A stretch of 64,000 bases of DNA. Origin: a virus. Taxonomy: Duplodnaviria > Caudoviricetes. The notes beneath the pieces were generated by a model. It did no database searches. It was not told where the DNA came from and worked only from the letters and a program-made list of their open reading frames with translations. The position numbers and the translations under genes were made by a program. This document shows, piece by piece, positions 7,269 through 58,928 of the stretch (positions are counted from its first letter, which is position 1; the number at the start of each line of letters is the position of its first letter). The stretch is from IMG/VR virus record IMGVR_UViG_3300029305_005280. One strand, 5' to 3'.

Positions 7269-8801
7269 ATGCTAGAAAATTTTAGTAAAAATGATGAACT
7301 AAAGTTTAAAGAGTTATCACCCGAAGAGAAACAACAAAGGGGCATACTTGGTAGATTGTATGGTCCGATTGCAAGTATCATGACAGCTACTCGTAATGGT
7401 AGAAAGTATACTGAGTCCCTTTGGGAAAAAGTTTTCGATAATCCTTTAACAAAAGAAATGTTTGCTCAGGGTGGTGTTCCCGGCGAATTAGACCATCCGG
7501 TAGACAGAGAAGAAACTTGTTCTGAAAAAATTGCTATAATGATGCCTGAACCTCCAACAAAAGGTACTGATGGCAAGTTGATGGGATACTTTGACATTAT
7601 TGATACACCTTGTGGTCGTATTGCTTATGCATTAGCAAAGTATGGATTTAATCTTGGTATTTCAAGCAGAGGTTCTGGTGACACATATACCGATTATGAC
7701 GGACAAGAGACAGTCGATGAAGATACATATTCATTTAATGCATTTGATTTAGTTTTATTACCAGCTTGTAAAGATGCAAGATTACAGTTAGCTGAATCAC
7801 TTGATACAAATAAAGTTAATTTCAGAAGAGCTTTGCAAGAGTCACTTGAGACATCAAGTGTTGAAGACAGAAAGATAATGACTGAAGCACTTGATAATCT
7901 TAATATTGAATATGACAAACCTTCTGATGAAATAAAGGCAGAAGATGCGGTAAATGATAATAATGACGTAGCCGATGATAGCGGAACTGATTTAGTAAAT
8001 GAACTGCAAGAAGCTCTGAAAGACAATAGTCGCTTACAAAGAGAAGTTATTGCTCTAAACGAAAAGTTATCAGTTAGTTATACTAAAGAGACTAAATTAA
8101 GTGAAGAGATTACAAATCTTAAAGATGCAGTTAAGAGATTATCTGAGTCAGTAAGCAAGTCACATGCACTGAGTAATCAGTTGCAAACAATGAAAGCTCA
8201 ATTAGAAGAGCAAACAAGTTTAGCAAGTGAGAGAGCTCAAATTATTGAGTCTTATAAAAAGAGACTCAATACAAATAACAAAAATCGTGTTGCTCTAAAA
8301 GAAAATATTTCTAAACGTAACAATGAAGTTATTGAGTTAAATGAGACAATCTCAAAGTTAAACGAAAGTATTGAAGTTCTTAAGTCTGATAGTAATAGTA
8401 AGATTTCAAAACTTACTGGTGAGCTTGCAGAATTAAAAGCAGATTCACAGATTAAGAATTCTCAATATGCAGATAAGCTTAGTAGAAGTAACAAACTAGT
8501 GGAACACTACAAAAAACTTGCAAGTAATGCCCTTGAACGTTACATTCAGAGTAAAGCTACTAGCTTAGGAATCAATGCAAATGAAATCAAAAATAGATTG
8601 AGTGAAAGTTATTCATTTGATGATGTCGATTTAGTTTGCGAAGATTTAAGAAGTTACAAATTAAACATGAGTAAGTTACCCTTTAATATTGGTAACAAAA
8701 ATGTTAGTAAAGTAACATTAAAAGAAGACACATCCACACAAAGATTTACAAATCCTGATGATGTAGTTGATAAAAATTTATTTGATTTAATCAATAACTA
8801 A
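7269..8801 (+). CDS. Prohead protease (T4 gp21-like) fused to coiled-coil scaffold
   Basis: RNGRKY, GELDHP, LGISSRGSG, FDLVLLPA motifs; long C-terminal coiled coil. Confidence 0.9.
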   Translation: MLENFSKNDELKFKELSPEEKQQRGILGRLYGPIASIMTATRNGRKYTESLWEKVFDNPLTKEMFAQGGVPGELDHPVDREETCSEKIAIMMPEPPTKGTDGKLMGYFDIIDTPCGRIAYALAKYGFNLGISSRGSGDTYTDYDGQETVDEDTYSFNAFDLVLLPACKDARLQLAESLDTNKVNFRRALQESLETSSVEDRKIMTEALDNLNIEYDKPSDEIKAEDAVNDNNDVADDSGTDLVNELQEALKDNSRLQREVIALNEKLSVSYTKETKLSEEITNLKDAVKRLSESVSKSHALSNQLQTMKAQLEEQTSLASERAQIIESYKKRLNTNNKNRVALKENISKRNNEVIELNETISKLNESIEVLKSDSNSKISKLTGELAELKADSQIKNSQYADKLSRSNKLVEHYKKLASNALERYIQSKATSLGINANEIKNRLSESYSFDDVDLVCEDLRSYKLNMSKLPFNIGNKNVSKVTLKEDTSTQRFTNPDDVVDKNLFDLINN

Positions 8802-42607: not shown

Positions 42608-43477
42608 ATGGCACAAGTTTCGTTTGATGCTGTTCCTGCTGAAAATCAGGGCGGCGGTAATTTTAATTCTGTTGAGTTTTTTACTCTAAGAAATGATGGA
42701 GATGAAGCGCTTGTAAGAATTCTTCATGACAGTACAGACTCATTCAATATCTTTACTGTCCATGATAATCTTTCCGTAAATGGCAAACGCAGAAAGGTAA
42801 ATTGTTTAAGAAGTCCAAAGGACCCTGTTGAAATGTGTCCGCTTTGTGCAAGTGGTAATAATATTGTAAATAGAATTTATATCAATATGCTTGTATATGG
42901 AAAAGATGCAAATGGTCAGATGACTATCACACCTGTGGTTTGGGAGCGTAGTTTTGCTTATGCATCAAGACTTAAAGTACTTATTGATGAATATGGTCCT
43001 CTTTCACAGTCAATTTTTAAGATTAAGAGAAGTGGCGCTGCAGGAAGTATGGAAACAAAATATGATATTCTATACTGTAACCCCAAAATTTATCCTGATA
43101 ATCTGTATCCAATTGCAAATACAGAAAAGTTTGAAGGATATTCCGCACTTGGCAGCGTGATTATGAATAAAACTGCTGCTGATATGAATGTGTTCTTAAA
43201 TACTGGTGCATTCCCTGCAGCACCTCAGAATGAAAATGCAAATGCAGCACCTCAGCAGATGAGTTATCAGCCAAAAGTTGAAACAAACGCACCTGTTTAT
43301 TCGGAGGTTCCGCCTGCAATTCCTGTAAATCCTACACCAGCAACAGGTGGTTATGTTCCTCAGGGAACTGGTACACCGAGCGCAGCACCACAGAGATGGA
43401 ACACAACCGGAGCACCTGCTCCTGTGGTTGAGAGTCCTTCAACCACAGGAAATGGGCCTGGACCTAGATATTATTGA
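42608..43477 (+). CDS. Single-stranded DNA-binding protein (gp32-like)
   Basis: H...C...CPLC Zn site, FKIKRSG...TKY; between primase and polymerase. Confidence 0.75.
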   Translation: MAQVSFDAVPAENQGGGNFNSVEFFTLRNDGDEALVRILHDSTDSFNIFTVHDNLSVNGKRRKVNCLRSPKDPVEMCPLCASGNNIVNRIYINMLVYGKDANGQMTITPVVWERSFAYASRLKVLIDEYGPLSQSIFKIKRSGAAGSMETKYDILYCNPKIYPDNLYPIANTEKFEGYSALGSVIMNKTAADMNVFLNTGAFPAAPQNENANAAPQQMSYQPKVETNAPVYSEVPPAIPVNPTPATGGYVPQGTGTPSAAPQRWNTTGAPAPVVESPSTTGNGPGPRYY

Positions 43478-45954
43478 TGGCAGGGTCTTTATGGGGCGAA
43501 GAGTTTGTTATTCCTAAAACTCCTCCAAAGAAAGTTATAAACAAGGTTAATAACCCCAAAGATGCAACTAAAGTTGTAACAAAAGCATTGAAATCTAATA
43601 GCCTCCCACTTGAGTTTAGGTTGGAGGCTATTAGGACTAATGTACTTAAGATACTTGGAAGATATGCAGACCGTACTCAGGTAATCAGGACAAGAGAAGA
43701 GTTAACTGCATATATTGATGCTGCAATTCAAAATGGCGTTATAGCTGTCGACACGGAGACAAATAATAGTCTTGACCCTATAACTTGTAAGTTGATGGGC
43801 CCGTGTATTTATACCCCAGGTCAAAAGAATGCTTACATACCACTAAATCACATACATCCTGTTACTCGTGTTAGGCTTGAAAATCAGCTTACTGAACAGG
43901 ATATCATTGAAGAATTTAGTAGGTTGACTGATATCAAGATTATCATGCACAATGGTAAGTTCGATTATCAGGTTATAAAATGTACTTGTGGTTTAGCATT
44001 GAAATGTTACTGGGATACAATGATAGCTGTTCGTATTCTCGACGAGAATGAAAAACGGGCAGGATTGAAGGAACAATATATAGATAAGATTGATTCTTCA
44101 ATTGAAAAGTACTCAATTGAGCACTTGTTTAAAGATGTTGAATATGCAGTTGTTGACCCTGAAATATTTGCTTTGTATGCTGCTACTGATGCTTTCATGA
44201 CCTATGAATTATACAAATGGCAAGAAGCACAGTTTAATAGAGCGGGGCATGAAAGAATAAAAGAATTATTCTTTGGTATTGAGATGCCTGTTATGGAAGT
44301 TGCAGCAGAAATGGAGCTAACAGGAGTTTGCATCGATAAAGAGTATGCAAGTAGATTAAGTAAAAAATATCATAAATTTATTGATGATGTTGATATTAGA
44401 ATTGCTGAACAACTTGAACAGTATCGCGATGTGATTTCTGAATGGAGAAAAACACCGGAAGCAAACTTTAAAGCACAGAAGGAAAATAAAAAGGGCGAAT
44501 TAACTTATGCAAAATCAAAAAGTGAACAGTTGAAGGACCCACCTGAGTTAACAAGTCCGACTCAGTTTGCTATACTATTATATGATGTTCTAGGAACAAA
44601 AGTTGTTGATAAGAAAAAGCCCAGAGGCACTGGTGAAGACATTCTTGTTCATATTGATAATCCATTATGTAAATTAGTATTAGAAAAAAGAGGACTTGAA
44701 AAATTAGTTGGTACATATATTGATAAGATACCAGGTTGTGTAAATGATGCAGATGGACGATTACATGCACATTTTAATCAGCTTGGTACGGATACGGGTC
44801 GATTTAGTTCTTCGGACCCTAACTTACAAAACATTCCCTCAAAGAATAAAGAAATTCGTTTGATGTTTGTTCCGTCACCCGGTTATGTGATGGTAGGCGG
44901 TGACTTTAGTCAACAGGAGCCCCGACTTTTGAGCAACTATGCAATGGATGAAAACATGATGAATGCATACCGTCAAGGAAAAGATTTGTATGCAACTATT
45001 GCAACTCAGATTCATAATAATACATACTGGGATAATATGGAGCATTTTGAAGACGGAACTCCTAACCCTGCTGGTAAGAAGCGTAGAAGTGGAGTTAAGA
45101 GTTTGATGCTGGGCATTATGTACGGTATGGGCTCTGCATCTTTAGCAGAAGCTATCGGAGGCACTATCAAAGATGCTCAGAAAATCATTGATGATTTCTA
45201 TGCAGGTTTTCCAAAAGTAAAGAAATGGATTGATGAGACTGACAGTAATGCCAAAAAGTATGGCTATGTTGAAGACTTCTGGGGAAGACGCAGAAGGTTA
45301 CCTGATATTCAACTTCCTAAATACAAGATTGTAGAAAAGAGTGCTTCAAAGAATTCAGTGGATATAAATCCTCTTCTTGGTGCAAAAGGAATTGTTAAAA
45401 AGACTGTTAATCCTTTGATTGCTCAGTATCAAAAACAACTTGAAGAAGCAAGAGGATGGCAGCAAGTAAGCAAGATTAAATCAGATGCATTACTTAATGG
45501 CATTGAAATACATGATAATGGTGGATTTATTGCATACGCAGAAAGACAATGTGTAAATGCTCGTGTTCAAGGTGGGGCTGCAACAATGTCAAAACTTGCA
45601 ATGAGGAAAGTATATGACAATCCTGAGTTGCGTAGACTTGGATTCCGGATGCTATTACAGGTGCACGATGAACTTATTGGAGAGTGCCCCATTGAAAATG
45701 CTGATGAGGTAGCTGCTTTGCTTTCTGACATCATGAAGCATTCAGCAGAACCCGTTGTTACAATTCCATTCAAATGTGACACTGAAGTCAGTGCTTGCTG
45801 GTATTATGATGATTATAGTAATACACTTAAAGCAGAATTCAATAAGCTCCTTGACAAAGGAATGTTGAAAAATGATGCATACAATACTATTCTAAACGAG
45901 CACACTGAGTGTACCGAAGAACAAATCAAAGATTTCTTATCAGATATATTGTAA
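43477..45954 (+). CDS. polA: Family A DNA polymerase with 3'-5' exonuclease
   Basis: VDTET, HNGKFD, YAATD, TGRFSSSDPNLQNIP, DFSQQEPR, KSLMLGIMYG, VQGGAA, QVHDEL. Confidence 0.95.
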   Translation: MAGSLWGEEFVIPKTPPKKVINKVNNPKDATKVVTKALKSNSLPLEFRLEAIRTNVLKILGRYADRTQVIRTREELTAYIDAAIQNGVIAVDTETNNSLDPITCKLMGPCIYTPGQKNAYIPLNHIHPVTRVRLENQLTEQDIIEEFSRLTDIKIIMHNGKFDYQVIKCTCGLALKCYWDTMIAVRILDENEKRAGLKEQYIDKIDSSIEKYSIEHLFKDVEYAVVDPEIFALYAATDAFMTYELYKWQEAQFNRAGHERIKELFFGIEMPVMEVAAEMELTGVCIDKEYASRLSKKYHKFIDDVDIRIAEQLEQYRDVISEWRKTPEANFKAQKENKKGELTYAKSKSEQLKDPPELTSPTQFAILLYDVLGTKVVDKKKPRGTGEDILVHIDNPLCKLVLEKRGLEKLVGTYIDKIPGCVNDADGRLHAHFNQLGTDTGRFSSSDPNLQNIPSKNKEIRLMFVPSPGYVMVGGDFSQQEPRLLSNYAMDENMMNAYRQGKDLYATIATQIHNNTYWDNMEHFEDGTPNPAGKKRRSGVKSLMLGIMYGMGSASLAEAIGGTIKDAQKIIDDFYAGFPKVKKWIDETDSNAKKYGYVEDFWGRRRRLPDIQLPKYKIVEKSASKNSVDINPLLGAKGIVKKTVNPLIAQYQKQLEEARGWQQVSKIKSDALLNGIEIHDNGGFIAYAERQCVNARVQGGAATMSKLAMRKVYDNPELRRLGFRMLLQVHDELIGECPIENADEVAALLSDIMKHSAEPVVTIPFKCDTEVSACWYYDDYSNTLKAEFNKLLDKGMLKNDAYNTILNEHTECTEEQIKDFLSDIL

Positions 45955-45958
45955 GATA

Positions 45959-46007
45959 TACTTGAGTTCAAATACCTTAATCCTCAAGTAAAATAAAAAA
46001 TTAGGAG
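45959..46007 (+). ncRNA. preQ1 class I riboswitch-like aptamer overlapping RBS
   Basis: P1 tacttgag/ctcaagta, loop UUCAAAUACCUUAAUC, A-rich tail AAAUAAAAAA then UUAGGAG; directly upstream of a preQ transporter. Confidence 0.75.
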
Positions 46008-46017
46008 TTTTAAAAAA

Positions 46018-46725
46018 ATGTTAACAAAAGTAAAAAATGAATTAAAGGAATACAGCAGACTTCTACATACAATTCCTTCATGGGTATTAACTTTGTTTGT
46101 CCTTAGTGTAGTTGCAATGAATCTTTTTGCCAATAAATCAATCAATCTTCCGGTCAGCTGGTTAGCTCTTGATTGTGGAATGATTTTTGCTTGGGCTCCA
46201 TTTCTTTGTATGGATATTGTTGTAAAACATTTCGGACCAAAAGCAGCTGTTAGATTAACAATTATTGCAACACTTGTCAATGTTTTGGTTTCAGTTATGT
46301 TTTTCTTTGGTGCACTTATTCCAGGCACATGGGGAGAATCATTCAATGGTGACATGAATATGATAAACACAGCTCTCAACAACACATTGAAGGGAAATTG
46401 GTATATTGTATTTGGTAGTACACTTGCATTCATTGTTGCAGGAATTGTTAATAGTATTACAAATCATGCAACAGGTAAGTTATGTAAAAATGACAATTTT
46501 CGTACATTTGCTCTAAGAACATATGTGTCAACGTTCATTGGTCAATTTGTAGATAACATGGTTTTCTCACTTGTAGTAAGTCAAGTATTGTTCGGGTGGA
46601 CCCTTTTACAGTGTGTCACTTGTTCTCTTACTGGAGCTCTGTGTGAACTGCTTTGTGAAACAGTATTCAGTCCTGTCGGTTGGAGAATTGTTAAGAAATG
46701 GAAAAAAGATAACCTTACAGTGTAA
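46018..46725 (+). CDS. yhhQ: VUT/YhhQ-family queuosine-precursor (preQ0/preQ1) transporter
   Basis: Multi-TM; NLFANK, FLCMDIVVKHFG, GSTLAF, RTYVSTFIGQFVDNMVF match the VUT family. Confidence 0.85.
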   Translation: MLTKVKNELKEYSRLLHTIPSWVLTLFVLSVVAMNLFANKSINLPVSWLALDCGMIFAWAPFLCMDIVVKHFGPKAAVRLTIIATLVNVLVSVMFFFGALIPGTWGESFNGDMNMINTALNNTLKGNWYIVFGSTLAFIVAGIVNSITNHATGKLCKNDNFRTFALRTYVSTFIGQFVDNMVFSLVVSQVLFGWTLLQCVTCSLTGALCELLCETVFSPVGWRIVKKWKKDNLTV

Positions 46726-46742
46726 GGATAGAATATGTGGGA

Positions 46743-46774
46743 TAGTTGAATTACTTTCAGCTATCCCTTATAAT
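46743..46774 (+). promoter_or_regulatory. SigmaA-type promoter within hairpin, driving the modification operon
   Basis: TAG-TTGAAT-17 bp-TATAAT. Confidence 0.8.
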
Positions 46775-46808
46775 ATAACTATAAACAATGAAACGGAGTT
46801 AAAAATAA

Positions 46809-47756
46809 ATGAGTGTTGTGTATTTCTTTAGCGGGGCTTACAAGCAGCCTTTAAAAAGAGAACTAAACATTGACCAGTTGTTTTCTGTTTATCATGAAAA
46901 AACATTGATTAAGAAAACAATTCAATATAAGAAAGAACATCCTGAATATACAGCAAAGATTATGGTCGATAGTGGTGCGTTCTCTTTATATCAGAAATTT
47001 AAAAAGAATGGTGAAATTCTTACTGATGAAGAATTAACTGCTTATACTGACGATTACATAGAGTTTTTGAATGAAGTAGGAGATGACTTATATTCATTTG
47101 TTGGAGTGGATACTGTTCCTAATCCCGATGACGTTGACCAAAGTTTTGCACAGAAGACTTGGGACAATTACCTTTATATGTATGAAAGACTAAGACCAGA
47201 GATTCGAGATAAACTAATGCCTGTTTTCCACTTTGGAGAAGATTTTAAGTGGTTAAGAAATATGTTGGAACACAAACACTCTACAGGTAAAGGTCTTGAG
47301 TGGGTTGGACTTGCTATCTCACTTGAAGGTAATCAGAAAGTAAGAATTAGTTGGGCAAATGAATGTCGTCGTATTATCAATGAAAGTAGCAACCCTAATG
47401 TTAAGACACATGCTTTTGGTGTAGGTGTTAAATCAGTTCTTGACCACATTGAAGTTACTTCGACAGATGCAACTTCTTGGTTAAAGCGTGCTGCTTACGG
47501 TATGGTAAGTATTCATGACAAAACAATTTACATAAGTGAACTTCAACAGCAAAAATTTGATGGAAGACATCTCACTGAAAAATCTGTGGCAATGCAAGGT
47601 GATGTTGAAAAGATTGTAAATGACCGAGGATTTACGCTTGAAGAGTTAGCAACTGACCCTTATGCAAGAGCAAAATTTAATATACTTGATACAATTGATT
47701 GGGTGAATAACTTAAATCAGAATAAGTTTTTAACCGCAAAGAAGGAACTATGGTAA
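46809..47756 (+). CDS. dpdA: TGT-fold base-exchange transglycosylase (DpdA-like)
   Basis: MVDSGAFS, MPVFH, THAFG, STDATSW motifs; lacks the C-terminal CxCxxC Zn site of bacterial tRNA TGT. Confidence 0.75.
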   Translation: MSVVYFFSGAYKQPLKRELNIDQLFSVYHEKTLIKKTIQYKKEHPEYTAKIMVDSGAFSLYQKFKKNGEILTDEELTAYTDDYIEFLNEVGDDLYSFVGVDTVPNPDDVDQSFAQKTWDNYLYMYERLRPEIRDKLMPVFHFGEDFKWLRNMLEHKHSTGKGLEWVGLAISLEGNQKVRISWANECRRIINESSNPNVKTHAFGVGVKSVLDHIEVTSTDATSWLKRAAYGMVSIHDKTIYISELQQQKFDGRHLTEKSVAMQGDVEKIVNDRGFTLEELATDPYARAKFNILDTIDWVNNLNQNKFLTAKKELW

Positions 47757-47757
47757 T

Positions 47758-48468
47758 ATGGAAAGAGCATTGATAACAGGAACAAGTTGTGGTGTAGGTA
47801 GGGCTGCAGCAGTTAAGTTTCTAGATGAAGGATATGAGGTTTATGGACTTGATATCAAAGAACCTACTATTGTACATAAGAATTATCATCATGTTATTTG
47901 TGATGTAAGTAAGAAAGAACAACTTCCTTATATCAAAGACCTTGAATACATTGTTAACAATGCAGGCATTGTAACTCCACAGGTAGATGCAATTGATGTT
48001 AATCTTTATGGTTACATCAATATTCTTGAAGAATATGGTGACTGTCCTTCTCTTAAAAGTATTGTCCAAGTAGGCAGCACTGCTTCATACAAAGGTTACG
48101 ATAATATAAGGTATTGTGCCTCTCAGGGCGGAAGAGACGCACTAACAAAGTGGGCTGCAAACAATTTTGGTAACGATAAGAGACATGTTATTGTTAATTC
48201 TCTTAATCTTGATGGTATCGTAGCAGCTGACCCTGAAAAAGGAATTCAAGGTACATCGCTTGAACCTGAGTTATATGCACAGCCCCATTTGATGGAAACT
48301 ATTAAGAACCTCAGCGTGTTAAAGAAATTAGCAACTGTCGAGGAAATTGCGGAATGGATTTATTTCTTACTTGTTAAGAATACAGTGATGACTGGTCAAA
48401 TTCTGTCAATTGATGGAGAACTTATTGGTGCTTATAGATTTATTCAGTATCCGGGGTGGAACGATTAA
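47758..48468 (+). CDS. Short-chain dehydrogenase/reductase, atypical (YxxxQ)
   Basis: TGTSCGVG, VNNAG, VGSTAS, YCASQ, TGQILSIDG. Confidence 0.85.
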   Translation: MERALITGTSCGVGRAAAVKFLDEGYEVYGLDIKEPTIVHKNYHHVICDVSKKEQLPYIKDLEYIVNNAGIVTPQVDAIDVNLYGYINILEEYGDCPSLKSIVQVGSTASYKGYDNIRYCASQGGRDALTKWAANNFGNDKRHVIVNSLNLDGIVAADPEKGIQGTSLEPELYAQPHLMETIKNLSVLKKLATVEEIAEWIYFLLVKNTVMTGQILSIDGELIGAYRFIQYPGWND

Positions 48469-49352
48469 TGAATAAGATTTGTGCATTGATTCCTTGCTTA
48501 ATGCTGGATAATAACAGAGAGATAAATAAAAAATCAATAACCTCAAATCAAGAGCATCTAAAACTAGATGCTTATGTAATATATGACCAATGTTTCACAG
48601 AAAATGATTTCATTCCCGATTGTGAATATATTGGTCACGCTGATAAGCGTATGGGATGGGTTGAACCACGAAATGCACTTTTAAGATGGTTTTACAACTC
48701 AGACTATGACTATGCTTTTTGGATTGATGCAAATTCAACAGTGTCAAAACCTACACTAAATGATTTAACTACAATCATCGATAATATTAGAAATGGTACA
48801 TTAGATGATTGTGATTCTATATTTGCTACTTTAGGGATGTGGGTATCTCAAGAAAGGATTCAGTGTAAATCAGCTGAAGACTTCTATGATAATGTAAGAT
48901 TACTTCCATCAAGAATGGATAGAAGTTATAATTGGATGCACGGCATGTTTCATAAGAATTTTAAAAAATACTATAATCAAGAGTTCTATATTGATGAAAG
49001 ATGTGATACACGTAAAGGAACTCCTGATGATGTTTATTTTGCAAGATTGCTGAGAAAGTATACTAACTGCTGGGTAGCCCCCACTGTTGTAGTAAATAAG
49101 CCCTCATCTAAGATGTCTTGTACGTGGGCAAATGAAAAAGGAACATACGATTATCCTCCTGTTCTATTTGATATTGTGGATGATTATATCCTTGAAGAGT
49201 CAGAAAAGAATAGTTATCATATATGCAATAAAAATGTGCAGTTAAAGGAAATTGTAATTCCAAGAAATGATTATCTGCGTGAACATATTAAACATTATGT
49301 ACCACGAGGTAAAAAGAAAGAAACTTTAAATTCAAGAATGACATTGTTTTAA
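48468..49352 (+). CDS. GT-A-fold glycosyltransferase-like protein
   Basis: PRNALLRWF..SDYDYAFWIDAN, IDE...DDVYF pattern. Confidence 0.55.
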   Translation: MNKICALIPCLMLDNNREINKKSITSNQEHLKLDAYVIYDQCFTENDFIPDCEYIGHADKRMGWVEPRNALLRWFYNSDYDYAFWIDANSTVSKPTLNDLTTIIDNIRNGTLDDCDSIFATLGMWVSQERIQCKSAEDFYDNVRLLPSRMDRSYNWMHGMFHKNFKKYYNQEFYIDERCDTRKGTPDDVYFARLLRKYTNCWVAPTVVVNKPSSKMSCTWANEKGTYDYPPVLFDIVDDYILEESEKNSYHICNKNVQLKEIVIPRNDYLREHIKHYVPRGKKKETLNSRMTLF

Positions 49353-49365
49353 AGGAAGTGAACTG

Positions 49366-51090
49366 ATGAACCTTTTAGTACTATCAGGTGGTAGTGGAAA
49401 TGATTCATTGATTAGAGGACTTAAAAAGTTATATCCCTCAATCAACGTAAAGGTACTTGTTAATGCATATGATGCAGGTAAATCAACAGGTATTTGTAGA
49501 AAAGTGACTGATACATTAGGAGTGTCAGATATTAGAAAAAATCATATTAGAATGTATGAATCAATGACAAAGTATCCTAACAAATGTATTCTTGAATTCT
49601 ATAATGATAGATATGATTTTACAAAAGGGCACGAATGTGAAGAAATTCTACAAAAGTTATCAGAATGGAATCTGAGTCAATTTGGTGATTTTGTTCAAGC
49701 ATTCTTTTCCCGAACTAAATCAAAAGAGTATACATATAATGATTTTAATGTGTCCAATATTGTTTATGCAGAGATGTATGCTGCATTTGGATATAAGAAA
49801 ACAAATTCTATTTTTTGTGGTTTACTGGGCATTGACGATTTCTTACTATTAAATTCATTTGACAACGTTTACATTCAAGCAAGAACAAAATCCAATCATC
49901 TAATCGAAGATGAAGGGGATATTGTGGAATATTGTAATCCCTCTGACCCTATTGTTGGTATTGAGTATATCGGTGATTATAACAATGAGTTGAATCAAGA
50001 AGCAGTTAACGCAATCCAGTGGGCTGATTATATTGTTATTTCAACTGGAACATTCTGGAGCTCAATCTATCCTACATTACAGTATGGTGATTTGTATAAG
50101 TATATAAATGCATCTACTGCAAAGAAAGTGTGGGCAATAAACAACGAATGTGACAAAGATTCTTATGGTGTTGGAAGTAATCAATTTATCGAGTTTTTTG
50201 AAGAACTCGGGTTGAACTTAAATGATTTTCTTATTCTTGAGAATACTGATGCAGTACAAATTTTGAAAGAAGAAAATCCCACAAAGAACATTGTTTTCAA
50301 ATCAATGGATTCTTACAACGGGAAGCATAACCCCGATAAGTATGCTGCAGAAATTTTAAGATTGTATTATGGTATTGATTCTGCTGATTCATATGATACA
50401 ATATTGTTTGATTTTGATGATACACTGTGGGCAAGAGATGCCACTACCATAAATCCTCAGTCTTTATACTATTCTATTGATAATCTTAAACTGATGAATC
50501 AAAATTTAAGCAACAAGAGTGCAATTATTTCAGGTAACTCTTACAAAAGTATTCATAATAAGTTAGTCACAGTTTATGGTGCTCACTTTGATTCATTTGA
50601 TGTGGATGTGTGGGCTGATGCAAATACTAATTGCTATCGTAAAGGTGAGTTAGTTGATTCAATTTCTGATTTTATCATGGACAATGAAACTACAAAACTT
50701 ATTGTTGATTATCTATCAAGAAGATACAATGTTATTCCTGATGGAATTAAATTTGAAAATGATACTACTTATTTAAAGATAAAGCCTCTTGATGGTTTTA
50801 CAAGGAGAATTCTTGCCGATTACCTAAATAACTATGTATTTAAAAACATTGGATGCAGCCAATGCAAGGCAGTCACAACAGGTAATACGACATTAGATAT
50901 CATACATATAAACAACACTAAGGCAAAACTTCTGGATGTTTTAGATTGTAAGAATAAGAAAGTTCTTTATATTGGAGACGAAGTTAACTTTGGTAATGAT
51001 GCAGACATTGCAAGTAAATGTACTGCATATGTAAACACAAGTGGTGTTGAAGAAACACATTGTATATTGGAGTTGTTAAGTAAAAAATGA
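49366..51090 (+). CDS. CofD/YvcK (UPF0052)-like transferase fused to HAD phosphatase/mutase domain
   Basis: LSGGSG, NAYDAGKSTG, SDIRK, AIQWADYIVISTGTFWSSIYPTL; C-terminal DFDDTL, ISG, YIGDE...GND. Confidence 0.8.
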   Translation: MNLLVLSGGSGNDSLIRGLKKLYPSINVKVLVNAYDAGKSTGICRKVTDTLGVSDIRKNHIRMYESMTKYPNKCILEFYNDRYDFTKGHECEEILQKLSEWNLSQFGDFVQAFFSRTKSKEYTYNDFNVSNIVYAEMYAAFGYKKTNSIFCGLLGIDDFLLLNSFDNVYIQARTKSNHLIEDEGDIVEYCNPSDPIVGIEYIGDYNNELNQEAVNAIQWADYIVISTGTFWSSIYPTLQYGDLYKYINASTAKKVWAINNECDKDSYGVGSNQFIEFFEELGLNLNDFLILENTDAVQILKEENPTKNIVFKSMDSYNGKHNPDKYAAEILRLYYGIDSADSYDTILFDFDDTLWARDATTINPQSLYYSIDNLKLMNQNLSNKSAIISGNSYKSIHNKLVTVYGAHFDSFDVDVWADANTNCYRKGELVDSISDFIMDNETTKLIVDYLSRRYNVIPDGIKFENDTTYLKIKPLDGFTRRILADYLNNYVFKNIGCSQCKAVTTGNTTLDIIHINNTKAKLLDVLDCKNKKVLYIGDEVNFGNDADIASKCTAYVNTSGVEETHCILELLSKK

Positions 51091-51791
51091 TTTATGGATT
51101 AATCATAAGCGCGGGAAATCAAAAAAGATTTGCTAGTGAGAAACCAAAGGCGTTGCTTGACACACCCATTGGAGAAACGTTGCTTGATTTGAATATGGCA
51201 AATATGCATGAAGTGTGTGACCTTGTTTATGTTGTTTGTTCAACTCAGAATCAATCATGGTTTGACACTTCTGATAAGATTATTATTGATTCAGGTAAAG
51301 GTTGTGGAGACGCTGTAATGAAAGCATTACAGCAACTATCCTTGAAAGCTGATGATAAGGTCTTCATTCAATGGGGCGATTCATATCATAAGGTAAGCTT
51401 GTACAGATTACTTCAAGATAGATATATAGGTAAATTTTTAATTCCTTGTCAAAAAGAAGATAATCCATATGTTTGGATTATTCCTGAACGTAGGGGCGTG
51501 AAAGTATATTTTTCAAAATATGGCGAAACTTGTACTTCGGGATATCATGACCTAAGTTTGTTCTATGGTAATGCTTTAGAGTTGCTCTCATATCTTGAAG
51601 AATTTCGTGACCAAATTGAAAAAGATGGCAACTATATACATAAGCACGGTAATGAAATGCAATTCCTTGATGTGTTTAATGAAACAGTAATGCCCGCAGC
51701 TATTATAGAGGTATCAGATTATCAAGGTTTTTCATTCAACACAATAGATGAATTTCAAAAAATTATAGATAAGTTTGATTTTTCAAACTAA
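51087..51791 (+). CDS. Nucleotidyltransferase (NTP_transferase/MobA-GlmU-like)
   Basis: IISAGNQKRF...PKALL, GCGDAV, WGD, FNTIDE. Confidence 0.8.
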   Translation: MIYGLIISAGNQKRFASEKPKALLDTPIGETLLDLNMANMHEVCDLVYVVCSTQNQSWFDTSDKIIIDSGKGCGDAVMKALQQLSLKADDKVFIQWGDSYHKVSLYRLLQDRYIGKFLIPCQKEDNPYVWIIPERRGVKVYFSKYGETCTSGYHDLSLFYGNALELLSYLEEFRDQIEKDGNYIHKHGNEMQFLDVFNETVMPAAIIEVSDYQGFSFNTIDEFQKIIDKFDFSN

Positions 51792-51802
51792 CATATTATA
51801 AT
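51772..51802 (+). promoter_or_regulatory. SigmaA-type promoter within short hairpin
   Basis: TTGATT-16 bp-TATAAT; agtttga/tcaaact stem. Confidence 0.55.
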
Positions 51803-51834: not shown

Positions 51835-52959
51835 ATGATTATTAGAACAGAATTGCTACAGGATTCCTGTGCAAAAATTCTTAGCGCAGTTGACTCGAAT
51901 GTTCTTTCTGCAGTAACTGAAACTCTTGAGATTAGTGCTTCCGACGGTGTATTTACAATGGCAGTAACTAACAGAGAATATTTTGTGGAAATTAAGATGG
52001 ACATCGAAGTTGCTGAAACATTCCACGCAACCGTTAATGCAAATCTTTTCCTAAAACTTATTGCAAAGGTAACCTCTGAAACAATTGAATTGAATACAAA
52101 TGGTAATTCTTTACATATCAAGTGTAATGGTGATTATAAGATTCCTCTTATCTATGATGGAGAAGCACTTATGGAATTACCTCGCATTAGCATTGAAGAA
52201 GTAAACGAAACTATTGACGTCGATAGTTCTATTCTTCGTTCTCTTGTGAATTACAATAGCAAGGAATTAGGTAAAGGGACAATTTCTAAACCAATTCAAC
52301 GTCTCTATTATGTTGATAAAGAGGGAGCTATTACTTTTACAACTGGTGCGTGTGTTAATAAGTTTGATATTCCGATGACTTCAAAACTTCTTCTTAATGA
52401 TAAACTTGTTAAGTTGTTTAAGTTGTTTAAGGATACAAAAGTTAAGATGACTGTTGGTCATAATAAGATTAACAATGATACTTTCGCAACTGTTGTTTCA
52501 TTTGAAGCACCTGGTGTGTATATTACAGCAGCCCTTAGTTGTGACGATAGTATGTTTGTATCATATCCTGTTGACCCTGTTAGAGGTCGTGCAAATTCAG
52601 TATATCCTTACGCTGTTGCAGTTAACAAAGATACCCTACTTCAGACCATTGATAGATTGATGCTATTCAATCAGACTTCAAGTAAAGCCGATTTCTCACA
52701 GGCAATTGTAAAACTTGAATTTGGAAGTGATGCAGTTGTTGTGTCAGACCGTATGGGAATCAACAAAGAAGAAATCCCATATAGCAAATCAATTGAAGGA
52801 ATTGATACATATAGCGCACTTATTGACAGTGGCGACCTAACCAAAACACTTGCAAGTTGCGTAAATCAGTTTGTAAATATTGCTTTTGGCAATAGTCAAG
52901 CATTTGTACTATCAGAGGGAATGATTAAGTGGGTAATTCCCGAATGCACTGAGGCCTAA
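51835..52959 (+). CDS. dnaN: Sliding clamp, DNA Pol III beta-like
   Basis: 374 aa three-domain length; TNRE, VNANLFLKLIAKV, YP, LLQTIDRL patterns; clamp loader genes nearby. Confidence 0.75.
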   Translation: MIIRTELLQDSCAKILSAVDSNVLSAVTETLEISASDGVFTMAVTNREYFVEIKMDIEVAETFHATVNANLFLKLIAKVTSETIELNTNGNSLHIKCNGDYKIPLIYDGEALMELPRISIEEVNETIDVDSSILRSLVNYNSKELGKGTISKPIQRLYYVDKEGAITFTTGACVNKFDIPMTSKLLLNDKLVKLFKLFKDTKVKMTVGHNKINNDTFATVVSFEAPGVYITAALSCDDSMFVSYPVDPVRGRANSVYPYAVAVNKDTLLQTIDRLMLFNQTSSKADFSQAIVKLEFGSDAVVVSDRMGINKEEIPYSKSIEGIDTYSALIDSGDLTKTLASCVNQFVNIAFGNSQAFVLSEGMIKWVIPECTEA

Positions 52960-53430
52960 GTGGCTCAAAATAGAGGAAAGGTGTTTGAGGAGAAAGTAAA
53001 ACAGGACCTCCTCAAACTGCCTGATATTTGTGTTGAACGACTTCCAGACCAGATGTCAGGATTTAAAGGTTCAAAAAATGTATGTGATTTTGAAGCTTAT
53101 TGGTACCCACATCTATATTATCTTGAATGTAAAACAACACACGAAAATACATTTGCTCTGTCAGCTTTAACTCAATATGATAAGCTACTTGAGAGAAAAG
53201 GTAAAAAAGGTGTTAGGTCTGGAGTTATGCTATGGTTCATAAAACATGATAAAGTTTGTTATGTTCCAATAGCAACATTTGAAAAGTTAAAAAATGATGG
53301 TAAGAAATCTGTAAACATTAAGATGTTGGGAACGGATGAATACCGAATAATTGAGATACCCGCTGTAAAGAAAAGAGTTTTTCTTGACTGCGATTTTAAT
53401 ATATTAAAACAATTGCAGGAGGGTGATTGA
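52960..53430 (+). CDS. recU: Holliday junction resolvase RecU-like
   Basis: NRGKVFE, CDF, LECKT motifs. Confidence 0.75.
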   Translation: MAQNRGKVFEEKVKQDLLKLPDICVERLPDQMSGFKGSKNVCDFEAYWYPHLYYLECKTTHENTFALSALTQYDKLLERKGKKGVRSGVMLWFIKHDKVCYVPIATFEKLKNDGKKSVNIKMLGTDEYRIIEIPAVKKRVFLDCDFNILKQLQEGD

Positions 53431-53984
53431 TGTACATAAATTCAGAATTTGATTCTTGGGTTAAGCAGAATGTAAATAATATGGATTATGCTGTAATTGA
53501 ACCTCCTTGTTTAAATAGGGGTCAGTATTCTTACATATGGTCAAACATAGGGCTTATTGATATTTTTCAGACATTTGATATTAAGTATCTATTTATGTGG
53601 GTAGATGTTAATACGCTACCAAGGCTGTTTACCGTTTATCAAGAATCGGATTATGAGTTCAAAGCATTACTTCCGTGGGTAAAGATTACAAAAACTGATA
53701 ATCTTTTTTATACTTTAACCAACACACTTAAAAGTAATGTTGAATATCTTGCAGTATTTCAGAAACCGAATGTTCCAAAGTTAAAATTTAATGATAAGAA
53801 CATTATTGTTGATGAACAAGATTCATACACTCATAAACCAAAAAAGTGGGAAGAATACTTACAGAAGCAATTATCTTATAGCGGTTTAGAAGGAATCTAT
53901 ATCCATTCAAATGGTGACTATGAGAGGTTGATTTCAATTAACCAGGACGATGAACCTAAAGTTCATAAAACCGAATTATTTTAG
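53430..53984 (+). CDS. Degenerate MT-A70-like methyltransferase fold protein
   Basis: DYAVIEPPC, LFMWV, PWVK, KSNVEYL, HKP occur in MT-A70 motif order; DPPW replaced by EPPC. Confidence 0.55.
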   Translation: MYINSEFDSWVKQNVNNMDYAVIEPPCLNRGQYSYIWSNIGLIDIFQTFDIKYLFMWVDVNTLPRLFTVYQESDYEFKALLPWVKITKTDNLFYTLTNTLKSNVEYLAVFQKPNVPKLKFNDKNIIVDEQDSYTHKPKKWEEYLQKQLSYSGLEGIYIHSNGDYERLISINQDDEPKVHKTELF

Positions 53985-58492: not shown

Positions 58493-58859
58493 TGTAGTAA
58501 AAAGGGAGTTAGAGAAAGTTAGGGCTCCTTTGCCCGATTATAACGACGACACATCTGTTATAAAAATTCCTAAACATAGCAATATCATTGAAGACCCATA
58601 TGTAAAAGGGTTGTGTTGTATTCTTCAACTTGCTCCCTATATTCTTAAGGAACCTCCAAATTTTTCATTGTCTTCAAATTGGAATAAAGGAATTGTTCCT
58701 GTTAGTGAGTATCTAAAGATTGAAATAGTTGATGTTTATGGTAACATGATAAAGGTGGATGGTATTGGGTTTGAGTATGAAACTCAAACAGACAAACAGG
58801 ATTCATATCTAGGTCTATGGTTACCAAAAGAAGGAACTCATATTGTTGCAAAATTATAG
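58485..58859 (+). CDS. Hypothetical protein
   Basis: ORF overlapping upstream gene. Confidence 0.5.
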   Translation: MNDVVKRELEKVRAPLPDYNDDTSVIKIPKHSNIIEDPYVKGLCCILQLAPYILKEPPNFSLSSNWNKGIVPVSEYLKIEIVDVYGNMIKVDGIGFEYETQTDKQDSYLGLWLPKEGTHIVAKL

Positions 58860-58862
58860 GGT

Positions 58863-58894
58863 TAGTTGAATTTCCGACTAACCCTATTTATAAT
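58863..58894 (+). promoter_or_regulatory. SigmaA-type promoter within hairpin
   Basis: TAG-TTGAAT-17 bp-TATAAT. Confidence 0.8.
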
Positions 58895-58928
58895 ATAATA
58901 AAGAATAACTGTAAAGGAAAGATAATTG

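Follow-up and report, generated by a model that had tools for sequence, protein, structure and literature searches.

A 64,000-nucleotide stretch of DNA (the window), lying on the minus strand of the 156,472-bp IMG/VR viral contig IMGVR_UViG_3300029305_005280 (97% complete according to CheckV), carries between its polA and beta sliding clamp genes a structured leader RNA, a Vut-family transporter gene and a tightly packed run of five further genes. These five encode a DpdA-like protein, a short-chain dehydrogenase/reductase (SDR), a protein with the GT-A glycosyltransferase fold, a fusion of a CofD/YvcK-like domain to a HAD domain, and a nucleotidyltransferase. An original prediction, made from the DNA sequence, had proposed that the region specifies a riboswitch-gated system that salvages a 7-deazaguanine, exchanges it for guanine in DNA and decorates it with a four-enzyme module. 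Our analysis confirmed the observation itself and partly supported this interpretation. The features of the region are:

43474-45954: polA, flanking the operon on its 5' side
45958-46021, plus strand: structured leader RNA (hairpin CUUGAG-16 nt-CUCAAG, A-rich tail, Shine-Dalgarno sequence of the transporter gene)
46018-46725, plus strand: Vut-family transporter gene, 63-nt gap after polA
46740-46775, plus strand: promoter-like site before dpdA (hairpin GGGATAG/CTATCCC around TTGAAT, then TATAAT; consensus match only)
46809-47756, plus strand: gene for the DpdA-like protein of 315 amino acids (aa), 83-nt gap after the transporter gene
47758-48468, plus strand: SDR gene, 236 aa, 1-nt gap after the DpdA-like gene
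48456/48468-49352, plus strand: GT-A gene, 298 aa, overlapping the SDR gene
49366-51090, plus strand: CofD-HAD fusion gene, 574 aa, 13-nt gap after the GT-A gene
51087-51791, plus strand: nucleotidyltransferase gene, 234 aa, 4-nt overlap with the fusion gene
51775-51802, plus strand: promoter-like site before the clamp gene (TTGATT-16-TATAAT, 10/12; consensus match only)
51835-52959, plus strand: beta sliding clamp gene (PF00712), genomic context

The gene positions and the spacing of the five-gene run (1 nt, overlap, 13 nt, overlap) were confirmed, and the domain calls made earlier also held: Vut_1 (PF02592, 2.9e-21) in the 235-aa transporter, adh_short in the SDR, CofD (PF01933, 3.5e-21) in the N-terminal domain of the fusion with HAD motifs I-IV in its C-terminal domain, and NTP_transf_3 (PF12804, 2.5e-6) in the nucleotidyltransferase. 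The GT-A reading frame opens at GTG 48456, and its homologs begin at ATG 48468. The prediction had noted that folE, queC and queD are missing from the window; this absence extends to the whole 156-kb genome, in which no QueC, QueD, FolE or QueF was found, and this supports the idea of salvage without de novo synthesis. The sole radical-SAM match in the genome is a small protein encoded beside a 748-aa open reading frame (ORF), and this is probably an NrdG-type activase.

The surrounding gene order is stable within the phage's own clade. A synteny survey for co-occurrence with DpdA, as had been suggested, showed that contigs of 110-410 kb retain the full order polA-Vut-DpdA-SDR-GT-A-fusion-nucleotidyltransferase-clamp-RecU-RecA, and this synteny is conserved across many contigs at ~50% protein identity. 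No match was obtained when the operon was compared by megablast with 50,697 phage records. A wider scan with the transporter yielded 80 phage loci, within which the genes co-occur in a nested fashion. An SDR gene adjoins Vut in 69 loci and DpdA is also nearby in 27; any GT-A gene was seen in ten, GT-A together with DpdA and SDR in eight, and the fusion as well in two (with the nucleotidyltransferase seen in one). A further count gives 19 loci with DpdA and SDR and no GT-A, and in loci L035 and L036 the order is Vut-DpdA-SDR-GT-A with the clamp next, the fusion and nucleotidyltransferase being absent. Judged by gene content, the operon is therefore built of three modules, namely the leader, transporter and SDR; DpdA; and GT-A with a portable fusion/nucleotidyltransferase pair. 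A related phage was also seen to have a group I intron in its polA region (L117, 3900-4133; Rfam, 73 bits).

The operon had further been described as bounded by promoters at 46746 and 51775. A site is present at each of these positions, matching 10 of 12 consensus positions, but the number of promoter-like sites in the region equals that expected from shuffled sequence. A hairpin-promoter architecture, in which a 7-9-bp hairpin surrounds a TTGAAT-like -35 element and TATAAT follows directly, recurs in this phage, with copies at 46740-46775 and 58857-58895 of the window and at 102727, 104450 and 125089 of the genome (window-strand coordinates).

Probable precursor salvage and base exchange

The transporter scores 41.4 bits against TIGR00697 ('queuosine precursor transporter'), for which the cut-off is 50.95, and its homologs adjoin que genes in phages. 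At 18 loci, from genomes of 148-165 kb, the order is Vut-SDR-QueF-QueC-QueD-QueE-FolE, and DpdA lies elsewhere in those genomes. HNH endonuclease genes are inserted in some of these que operons (L067, 9781-10440, and relatives). The protein is thus probably a Vut/YhhQ transporter that imports a 7-deazaguanine precursor, which, from its gene neighbourhoods, would be of the preQ1 type.

The bacterial counterparts are informative about the SDR. The 80 best-matching bacterial transporter loci all come from gut Firmicutes, and an SDR gene directly follows the transporter gene in 71 of them. This yhhQ-like plus SDR operon occurs in metagenome-assembled genomes of Clostridia, Holdemanella and Bacilli (L129-L208; for example L137, 2444-3890). 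Among ten Firmicute genomes that carry it, TGT (tRNA-guanine transglycosylase) was found in nine and QueA in seven, with no convincing QueC or QueF in any, and these ten organisms are therefore probably preQ1 salvagers. What an SDR does in queuosine-precursor salvage seems not to have been described, and the Firmicute operon implies a redox step in this process that has not been reported. Since the SDR accompanies the transporter so constantly in both phages and bacteria, and heads the que operons, we place it on the deazaguanine side of the pathway and not on the sugar side; its earlier assignment to a sugar or polyol decoration module is not borne out by the 69/80 phage and 71/80 bacterial loci.

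The SDR has the classical Rossmann motifs TGxxxGxG and NNAG together with N82, S107 and Y119, but its N-S-Y-K tetrad is incomplete, the catalytic Lys being replaced by Gln123 and an Arg gained three residues on, at position 126. Relatives in que operons and in bacteria retain the Lys, and the distribution of the Lys-to-Gln/Arg126 variant coincides exactly with the lineages in which the SDR lies beside DpdA, all of those with GT-A among them. Phages of ~42 kb constitute a separate group, in which Vut and SDR occur and no DpdA or phrog_887 homolog was found (L046, L047, L060, L061, L068, L069, L072, L078, L079, L081, L083-L085, L088-L090, L092, L093 and L110). The two of these that were checked are 99-100% complete, one of them having terminal repeats.

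The 315-aa DpdA-like protein matches phrog_887 ('queuine tRNA-ribosyltransferase') at 2.8e-36. It has no Pfam match, the TGT family PF01702 included, and none of the 253 clusters in its family carries a Pfam domain. Its AlphaFold2 model has a pLDDT (predicted local distance difference test) of 86.3, and the top Foldseek matches are all TGT or ArcTGT (E 5e-8 to 1e-5). Family profiles of this protein and of GT-A gave no meaningful match when searched against Protein Data Bank (PDB) sequences, so that the fold assignments for both rest on predicted structures. The best annotated relatives in tblastn searches are the phage DpdAs of Dp-1, Bacillus phage Flasso, the Seuratvirus/Nonagvirus coliphages and Pseudomonas NP1-like phages, with the Seuratvirus/Nonagvirus and NP1-like proteins matching at 1e-13 to 1e-15 and gp7 of Streptococcus phage Dp-1 at 5e-46 (34% identity). 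Dp-1 DNA carries dPreQ1 (PMC6884629). Two motifs, DSGAF (54-58) and STDATS (218-223), do not vary across 19 sequences, occur in Dp-1 as well and are putative counterparts of the regions around TGT Asp102/Asp280; the family lacks a conserved Cys for the TGT zinc site. We conclude that 46809-47756 most likely encodes a DpdA-family DNA guanine transglycosylase, which is predicted to exchange G in DNA. This agrees with the DpdA-like base exchanger proposed originally, as the protein groups with the phage DNA enzymes and not with tRNA TGTs.

The DpdA-like protein ends in a flexible ...KKELW tail, and across its family the tails read ELW, DLGW or SLF. The GT-A protein likewise has a C-terminal extension, a basic tail ending in LF. 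Conserved, low-confidence L[FW] tails of the clamp-binding kind are found only in DpdA and GT-A, and not in the three metabolic enzymes, making the beta clamp a possible docking partner of the two tails. Prediction of a complex between the clamp and the tail of GT-A (residues 262-298) gave a weak score of 0.49, the best of three controls scoring 0.00, with a run agreement of at least 44% and a partner pLDDT of at least 42. This score was discounted and is not used as evidence, because complex-prediction passes at or below 0.60 comprise only seven of 80 solved complexes together with both of the mismatched pairs that passed. A 185-aa ORF downstream of RecU (window 53427-53984) ends in ...KTELF, a tail of the same type. 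In many relatives of the DpdA-like protein (401-406 aa; L004, L006, L011) some 85 extra residues separate the catalytic core from the last helix, close to the C-terminus; the window protein does not have this insertion.

Given these features, we regard it as very improbable that the salvaged queuosine precursor and the TGT-fold enzyme serve an RNA system, remodelling tRNA or feeding the host TGT so as to tune translation. In favour of such a system, the Vut-SDR pair derives from bacterial tRNA-queuosine salvage and is present in complete 42-kb phages without any DpdA. However, the window enzyme groups with phage DpdAs that are proven to modify DNA (PMC6884629), it has neither a Pfam TGT match nor the conserved Cys of the zinc site, its gene lies in the replication block, and its tail resembles a clamp motif.

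The leader RNA

The leader had been described as preQ1-riboswitch-like. Its architecture is indeed preQ1-I-like, but it has no match to Rfam preQ1-I, -II or -III even at E<=10, the RF00522 score not being reached, and the leaders of related phages likewise match none of the three. In homologous transporter leaders the hairpin recurs with its loop sequence UUUUGUAA..CCUUGACACC conserved, and the A-rich tail and Shine-Dalgarno sequence are shared as well. In 17 related leaders the P1 stem comprises six pairs, five of which show two-sided changes. Pairing is found in 94% of cells compared with 64% in shuffles, and the covariation score of 0.705 (0.175 shuffled) was equalled by none of 500 shuffles; the signal was lost once the partner columns were slid.

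A covariance model, R1, was built from these 17 phage leaders with the window leader left out. In the window, 45958-46021 is its sole match (33.3 bits, E 0.0016), and other phage loci totalling 0.8 Mb contain 43 matches, all on the coding strand and each placed upstream of Vut or, where there is a second copy, in the interval from SDR to QueF. Across the window and phage loci amounting to ~1.17 Mb, the motif is thus confined to sites upstream of Vut and queF. The second copy, between SDR and queF at ~7395-7492, is seen in L063, L065, L066, L067, L080, L082, L087 and L091, in phages carrying the full queF-C-D-E-folE operon. Because copies precede both Vut and queF, the motif would control transporter and biosynthesis genes alike. 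For the one bacterial ortholog leader tested (L137), RF00522 is the best Rfam family, at 25.9 bits and E 0.0011, which is under the gathering score; other bacterial leaders resemble it by eye, and R1 matches one of the 80 bacterial loci.

In our reading the phage leader is a regulator that resembles preQ1-I but has diverged from it, with a larger loop and a longer tail, and may sense a deazaguanine ligand; the motif is a covarying, mostly phage-borne RNA and a candidate riboswitch variant. That the leader is a mere hairpin promoter was considered and rejected: this fits the window copy, but the related leaders have no properly spaced -10 element and the copies before queF are left unexplained. 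Sub-threshold RF00522 matches in two of the 42-kb phages were also set aside, as they lie in the structural-gene region and look like chance hairpins. Some of the ~42-kb Vut and SDR phages have a short leader, GCCGG-UACCAGAGAAC-CCGGC-AGAAAGGAG.

The glycosyltransferase and its probable sugar supply

The GT-A protein has no Pfam, PHROG or NCBIfam match, and its family is small, a search of 1.84 billion proteins giving 27 representative clusters at E<1e-30. Its AlphaFold2 model (pLDDT 92.7) has TarP, TarS, RmlT and AvpGT as top Foldseek matches (E 6e-9), and its D83-x-D85 motif is nearly invariant; the GT-A-like fold originally assigned to it was thereby upheld.

The two genes that follow point to the source of a donor. 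The N-terminal domain of the fusion (~residues 1-330) is far closer to YvcK (TIGR01826, 1.5e-14) than to CofD (TIGR01819, 0.003), with both scores lying under the respective cut-offs (54 bits against 196 for YvcK and 16.6 against 257 for CofD). A profile of the fusion matched the PDB entries 2ppv (4e-14), 4bnd (4.5e-6) and 7myv (0.004), those to the N-domain being YvcK-type. The C-terminal domain (~residues 345-574) is of the HAD-IIB type with motifs I-IV intact and invariant (DFDDT, SGN, K471/K473, GDE..GND), and is nearest to phosphomannomutase/alpha-phosphoglucomutase (4bnd, 7myv), from which mutase activity is predicted. The nucleotidyltransferase profile is closest to the uridylyltransferase domain of GlmU (1.1e-13) and to sugar-1-phosphate nucleotidyltransferases of archaea, with IspD and MobA ranking lower. 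A YvcK-like domain, a phosphomannomutase-like HAD domain and a GlmU-like nucleotidyltransferase together suggest the supply of a nucleoside diphosphate (NDP)-sugar.

The fusion has 509 full-length relatives, although scanning IMG/VR with the single protein gave no match and an alignment query was needed. Fusion and nucleotidyltransferase are paired in 32 of 33 loci (27 IMG/VR loci and the Ralstonia jumbo phage RsoM2USA included). At L014 (3924-6288) the domains are shuffled: a HAD-nucleotidyltransferase fusion is accompanied by a free-standing CofD/YvcK-like domain, and this arrangement ties the HAD step to that of the nucleotidyltransferase. Outside the phage's own clade the pair is not beside DpdA. 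Its neighbours there are T4 beta-glucosyltransferase-like genes (BGT-like; 20 loci), TET-associated glycosyltransferases (TAGT), and thymidylate-synthase-like, dNMP-kinase-like, dUTPase and dCMP-deaminase genes. By its gene content this is the setting of hydroxymethyl-pyrimidine glycosylation, and the window phage genome has none of these BGT-like, TAGT or hydroxymethyl-pyrimidine neighbour genes. In RsoM2USA (L001, gp1-gp6) and L012-L033 the pair lies near BGT-like, thymidylate-synthase-like, dNMP-kinase-like, dUTPase, deaminase and methyltransferase genes, and sugar-modified pyrimidines are predicted there on the strength of these neighbours. RsoM2USA is an isolated jumbo phage, in which these genes are annotated as hypothetical.

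The original prediction had proposed chemistry of the CofC/CofD kind. In such a scheme the nucleotidyltransferase would activate a phosphorylated small molecule, the CofD-like domain would transfer the phospho-linked moiety to a hydroxyl of the base or its sugar, giving a phosphodiester link, and the HAD domain would act as a phosphatase. The only firmly established catalysis in the CofD family is phospho-transfer from an NDP-activated donor, in F420 biosynthesis, and this precedent, the PF01933 match at 3.5e-21 and the invariable pairing of the fusion with a MobA/IspD-like nucleotidyltransferase all speak for it. We nevertheless judge it improbable, and less likely than supply of an NDP-sugar, given the YvcK-like rather than CofD-like profile and PDB matches, a HAD domain nearest to phosphomutases and not to phosphatases, and a nucleotidyltransferase that ranks GlmU and sugar-1-phosphate enzymes before IspD and MobA. 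YvcK/GlmR moreover binds UDP-GlcNAc and is reported as a uridyltransferase (PMC7525490, PMC10128056). The four-enzyme decoration module thus survives in part: GT-A, fusion and nucleotidyltransferase fall on the sugar side, with the last two forming a portable pair, whereas the SDR belongs with the transporter.

What GT-A modifies has to be judged from its associations. Searches of the flanks showed it to be restricted to lineages with DpdA and SDR, one of the two not being seen at three loci that are short or limited by a contig edge. This restriction, the position in the replication block, the service of the supply pair to DNA glycosyltransferases elsewhere and the type of tail lead us to infer that DNA, and within it the deazaguanine, is the acceptor. 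It is also conceivable, though unlikely in our view, that two unrelated systems lie side by side, the DpdA, transporter and SDR producing plain dPreQ1 or dPreQ0 DNA while GT-A and the supply pair have some other substrate, which could be a different DNA base, a protein of the phage or, in superinfection exclusion, the wall teichoic acid of the host (compare prophage TarP). The top structural matches TarP, TarS and RmlT, the portability of a supply pair that works with several glycosyltransferases, and the 19 loci with DpdA and SDR and no GT-A would all fit this arrangement. Against it, GT-A occurs only in DpdA/SDR lineages, in the same tight operon and in the replication block; the pair is found elsewhere with DNA glycosyltransferases (BGT-like, TAGT) and hydroxymethylase-type genes, not with surface-modifying genes; GT-A has a basic LF tail, as in DpdA, and not the C-terminal oligomerisation/binding domains of TarP and TarS; and hydroxymethyl-pyrimidine genes, from which an alternative acceptor might arise, are missing from the genome.

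Proposed pathway and comparison with known systems

Taken together, these data point to riboswitch-gated salvage of a preQ1-type base, its insertion into DNA by DpdA, and its glycosylation with a phage-made NDP-sugar, a pathway to which we give about even credence. The leader, Vut/YhhQ and SDR module would have been acquired from the two-gene operon of gut Firmicutes. The transporter would bring in a preQ1-type 7-deazaguanine precursor, one redox step by the SDR would follow, and the leader would switch translation off when its ligand is plentiful. The Dp-1-like DpdA may then swap guanine in phage DNA for the imported base after replication, and GT-A may attach a sugar to the inserted base. 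For the donor, the phosphomannomutase-like HAD domain is predicted to convert a sugar-6-phosphate to a sugar-1-phosphate, from which the GlmU-like nucleotidyltransferase would produce the NDP-sugar, with the YvcK/CofD-like domain binding, or also processing, the nucleotide sugar. More tentatively, we suggest a specific form of this pathway, in which the product is an O-glycosylated 7-deazaguanine base: the SDR would yield or keep a hydroxyl form, a clamp-tethered DpdA would insert it at the fork, GT-A would glycosylate it, and a new, largely phage-specific preQ1-I variant would gate the system.

Several observations weigh against this pathway. The nearest structures to GT-A are wall-teichoic-acid glycosyltransferases, and TarP itself is prophage-borne. 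There is no obvious acceptor hydroxyl, since preQ1 bears an amine only, and the SDR of the window lineage has Gln in place of the catalytic Lys. The complete 42-kb phages carry Vut-SDR without DpdA, so that the two genes can have a different use. The leader has no match to the Rfam PreQ1 models; its loop CCU(U) can pair with the Shine-Dalgarno sequence, with a complementarity no higher than in shuffles; and in the window the hairpin plus TAAAAT resembles the phage's own hairpin-embedded promoters. Lastly, the modified base itself is deduced from genes in assembled contigs.

The operon belongs to a large clade of animal-gut phages. Gut or faecal metagenomes of cattle, sheep, goats and others, from 14 studies in all, contain near-identical sequence (in the weakest cases just a few of the sampled words), and the clade is abundant in ruminant gut metagenomes. 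In two metatranscriptome runs, contigs span most of the operon of a relative at 95-97%; as DNA carry-over is possible and the contigs carry neither strand nor transcript ends, they are no proof of transcription.

The 7-deazaguanine DNA modifications described so far all have small groups at position 7 (PMC6884629, PMC10516641), and a recently reported pathway to arabinosyl-5-hydroxycytosine uses different enzymes (PMC13326640). YhhQ homologs in phages have been noted without follow-up (PMC6884629). A literature search found no paper tying CofD/YvcK, an SDR or a glycosyltransferase to phage 7-deazaguanine systems, none tying preQ1 riboswitches to DpdA and none describing this enzyme set, in agreement with the statement in the original prediction that no such deazaguanine pathway is described. 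The modified base would be a DNA modification of an undescribed kind. In phage DNA, pyrimidines are known to carry sugars; a deazaguanine with a sugar attached, if true, would join two DNA-modification chemistries, and would probably defeat restriction enzymes as well as the glycosylases and type IV systems aimed at each chemistry alone. The portable YvcK/CofD-phosphomutase and nucleotidyltransferase pair has a wider bearing, as many uncultured phages, and the Ralstonia jumbo phage RsoM2USA, have it alongside DNA glycosyltransferases.

Among known systems, that of Dp-1 (QueF-QueC-QueD-QueE-FolE-QueT-DpdA) shares with the window phage a homologous DpdA, a precursor transporter beside DpdA, a position upstream of DnaN-RecU-RecA and a Firmicute host. 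In contrast to Dp-1, the window phage has no de novo pathway, its transporter is of the Vut/YhhQ and not the QueT type, and it adds SDR, GT-A, YvcK/CofD-HAD and nucleotidyltransferase genes together with a structured leader. The leader resembles the preQ1-I riboswitch (RF00522) in its short hairpin, in a loop ending in C, in an A-rich tail running into the Shine-Dalgarno sequence and in its position before YhhQ-type transporter and queF operons, and the bacterial ortholog leader L137 scores best with RF00522. It differs in a loop of 16-21 nt rather than ~11 nt with the conserved UUUUGUAA..CCUUGACACC, in a longer tail and in the absence of an RF00522 score, the pseudoknot and ligand binding being putative in the phage leaders.

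The sugar-supply genes recall the YvcK/GlmR-GlmM-GlmU route to UDP-GlcNAc in Firmicutes, where a YvcK-like domain, phosphohexomutase function and a GlmU-like domain also come together; in the phage, however, the mutase is of the HAD (phosphomannomutase/alpha-phosphoglucomutase) type and not GlmM, the YvcK-like domain is fused to it, and the nucleotidyltransferase lacks the acetyltransferase domain of GlmU. With CofC/CofD of F420 biosynthesis they have in common a PF01933 domain paired with a MobA-like nucleotidyltransferase, but the phage fusion scores under the equivalog models, further F420 genes are lacking, and the genomic setting is that of DNA glycosylation. Finally, as in T4-type and TET-associated glycosylation of hydroxymethylpyrimidines, a nucleotide sugar would decorate a modified base after replication, and the same YvcK/CofD-HAD and nucleotidyltransferase pair flanks the BGT-like and TAGT genes of such systems. 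The window GT-A nonetheless belongs to a separate small family, its genome is without hydroxymethyl-pyrimidine genes, and DpdA, not a hydroxymethylase or a TET enzyme, is predicted to modify the base.

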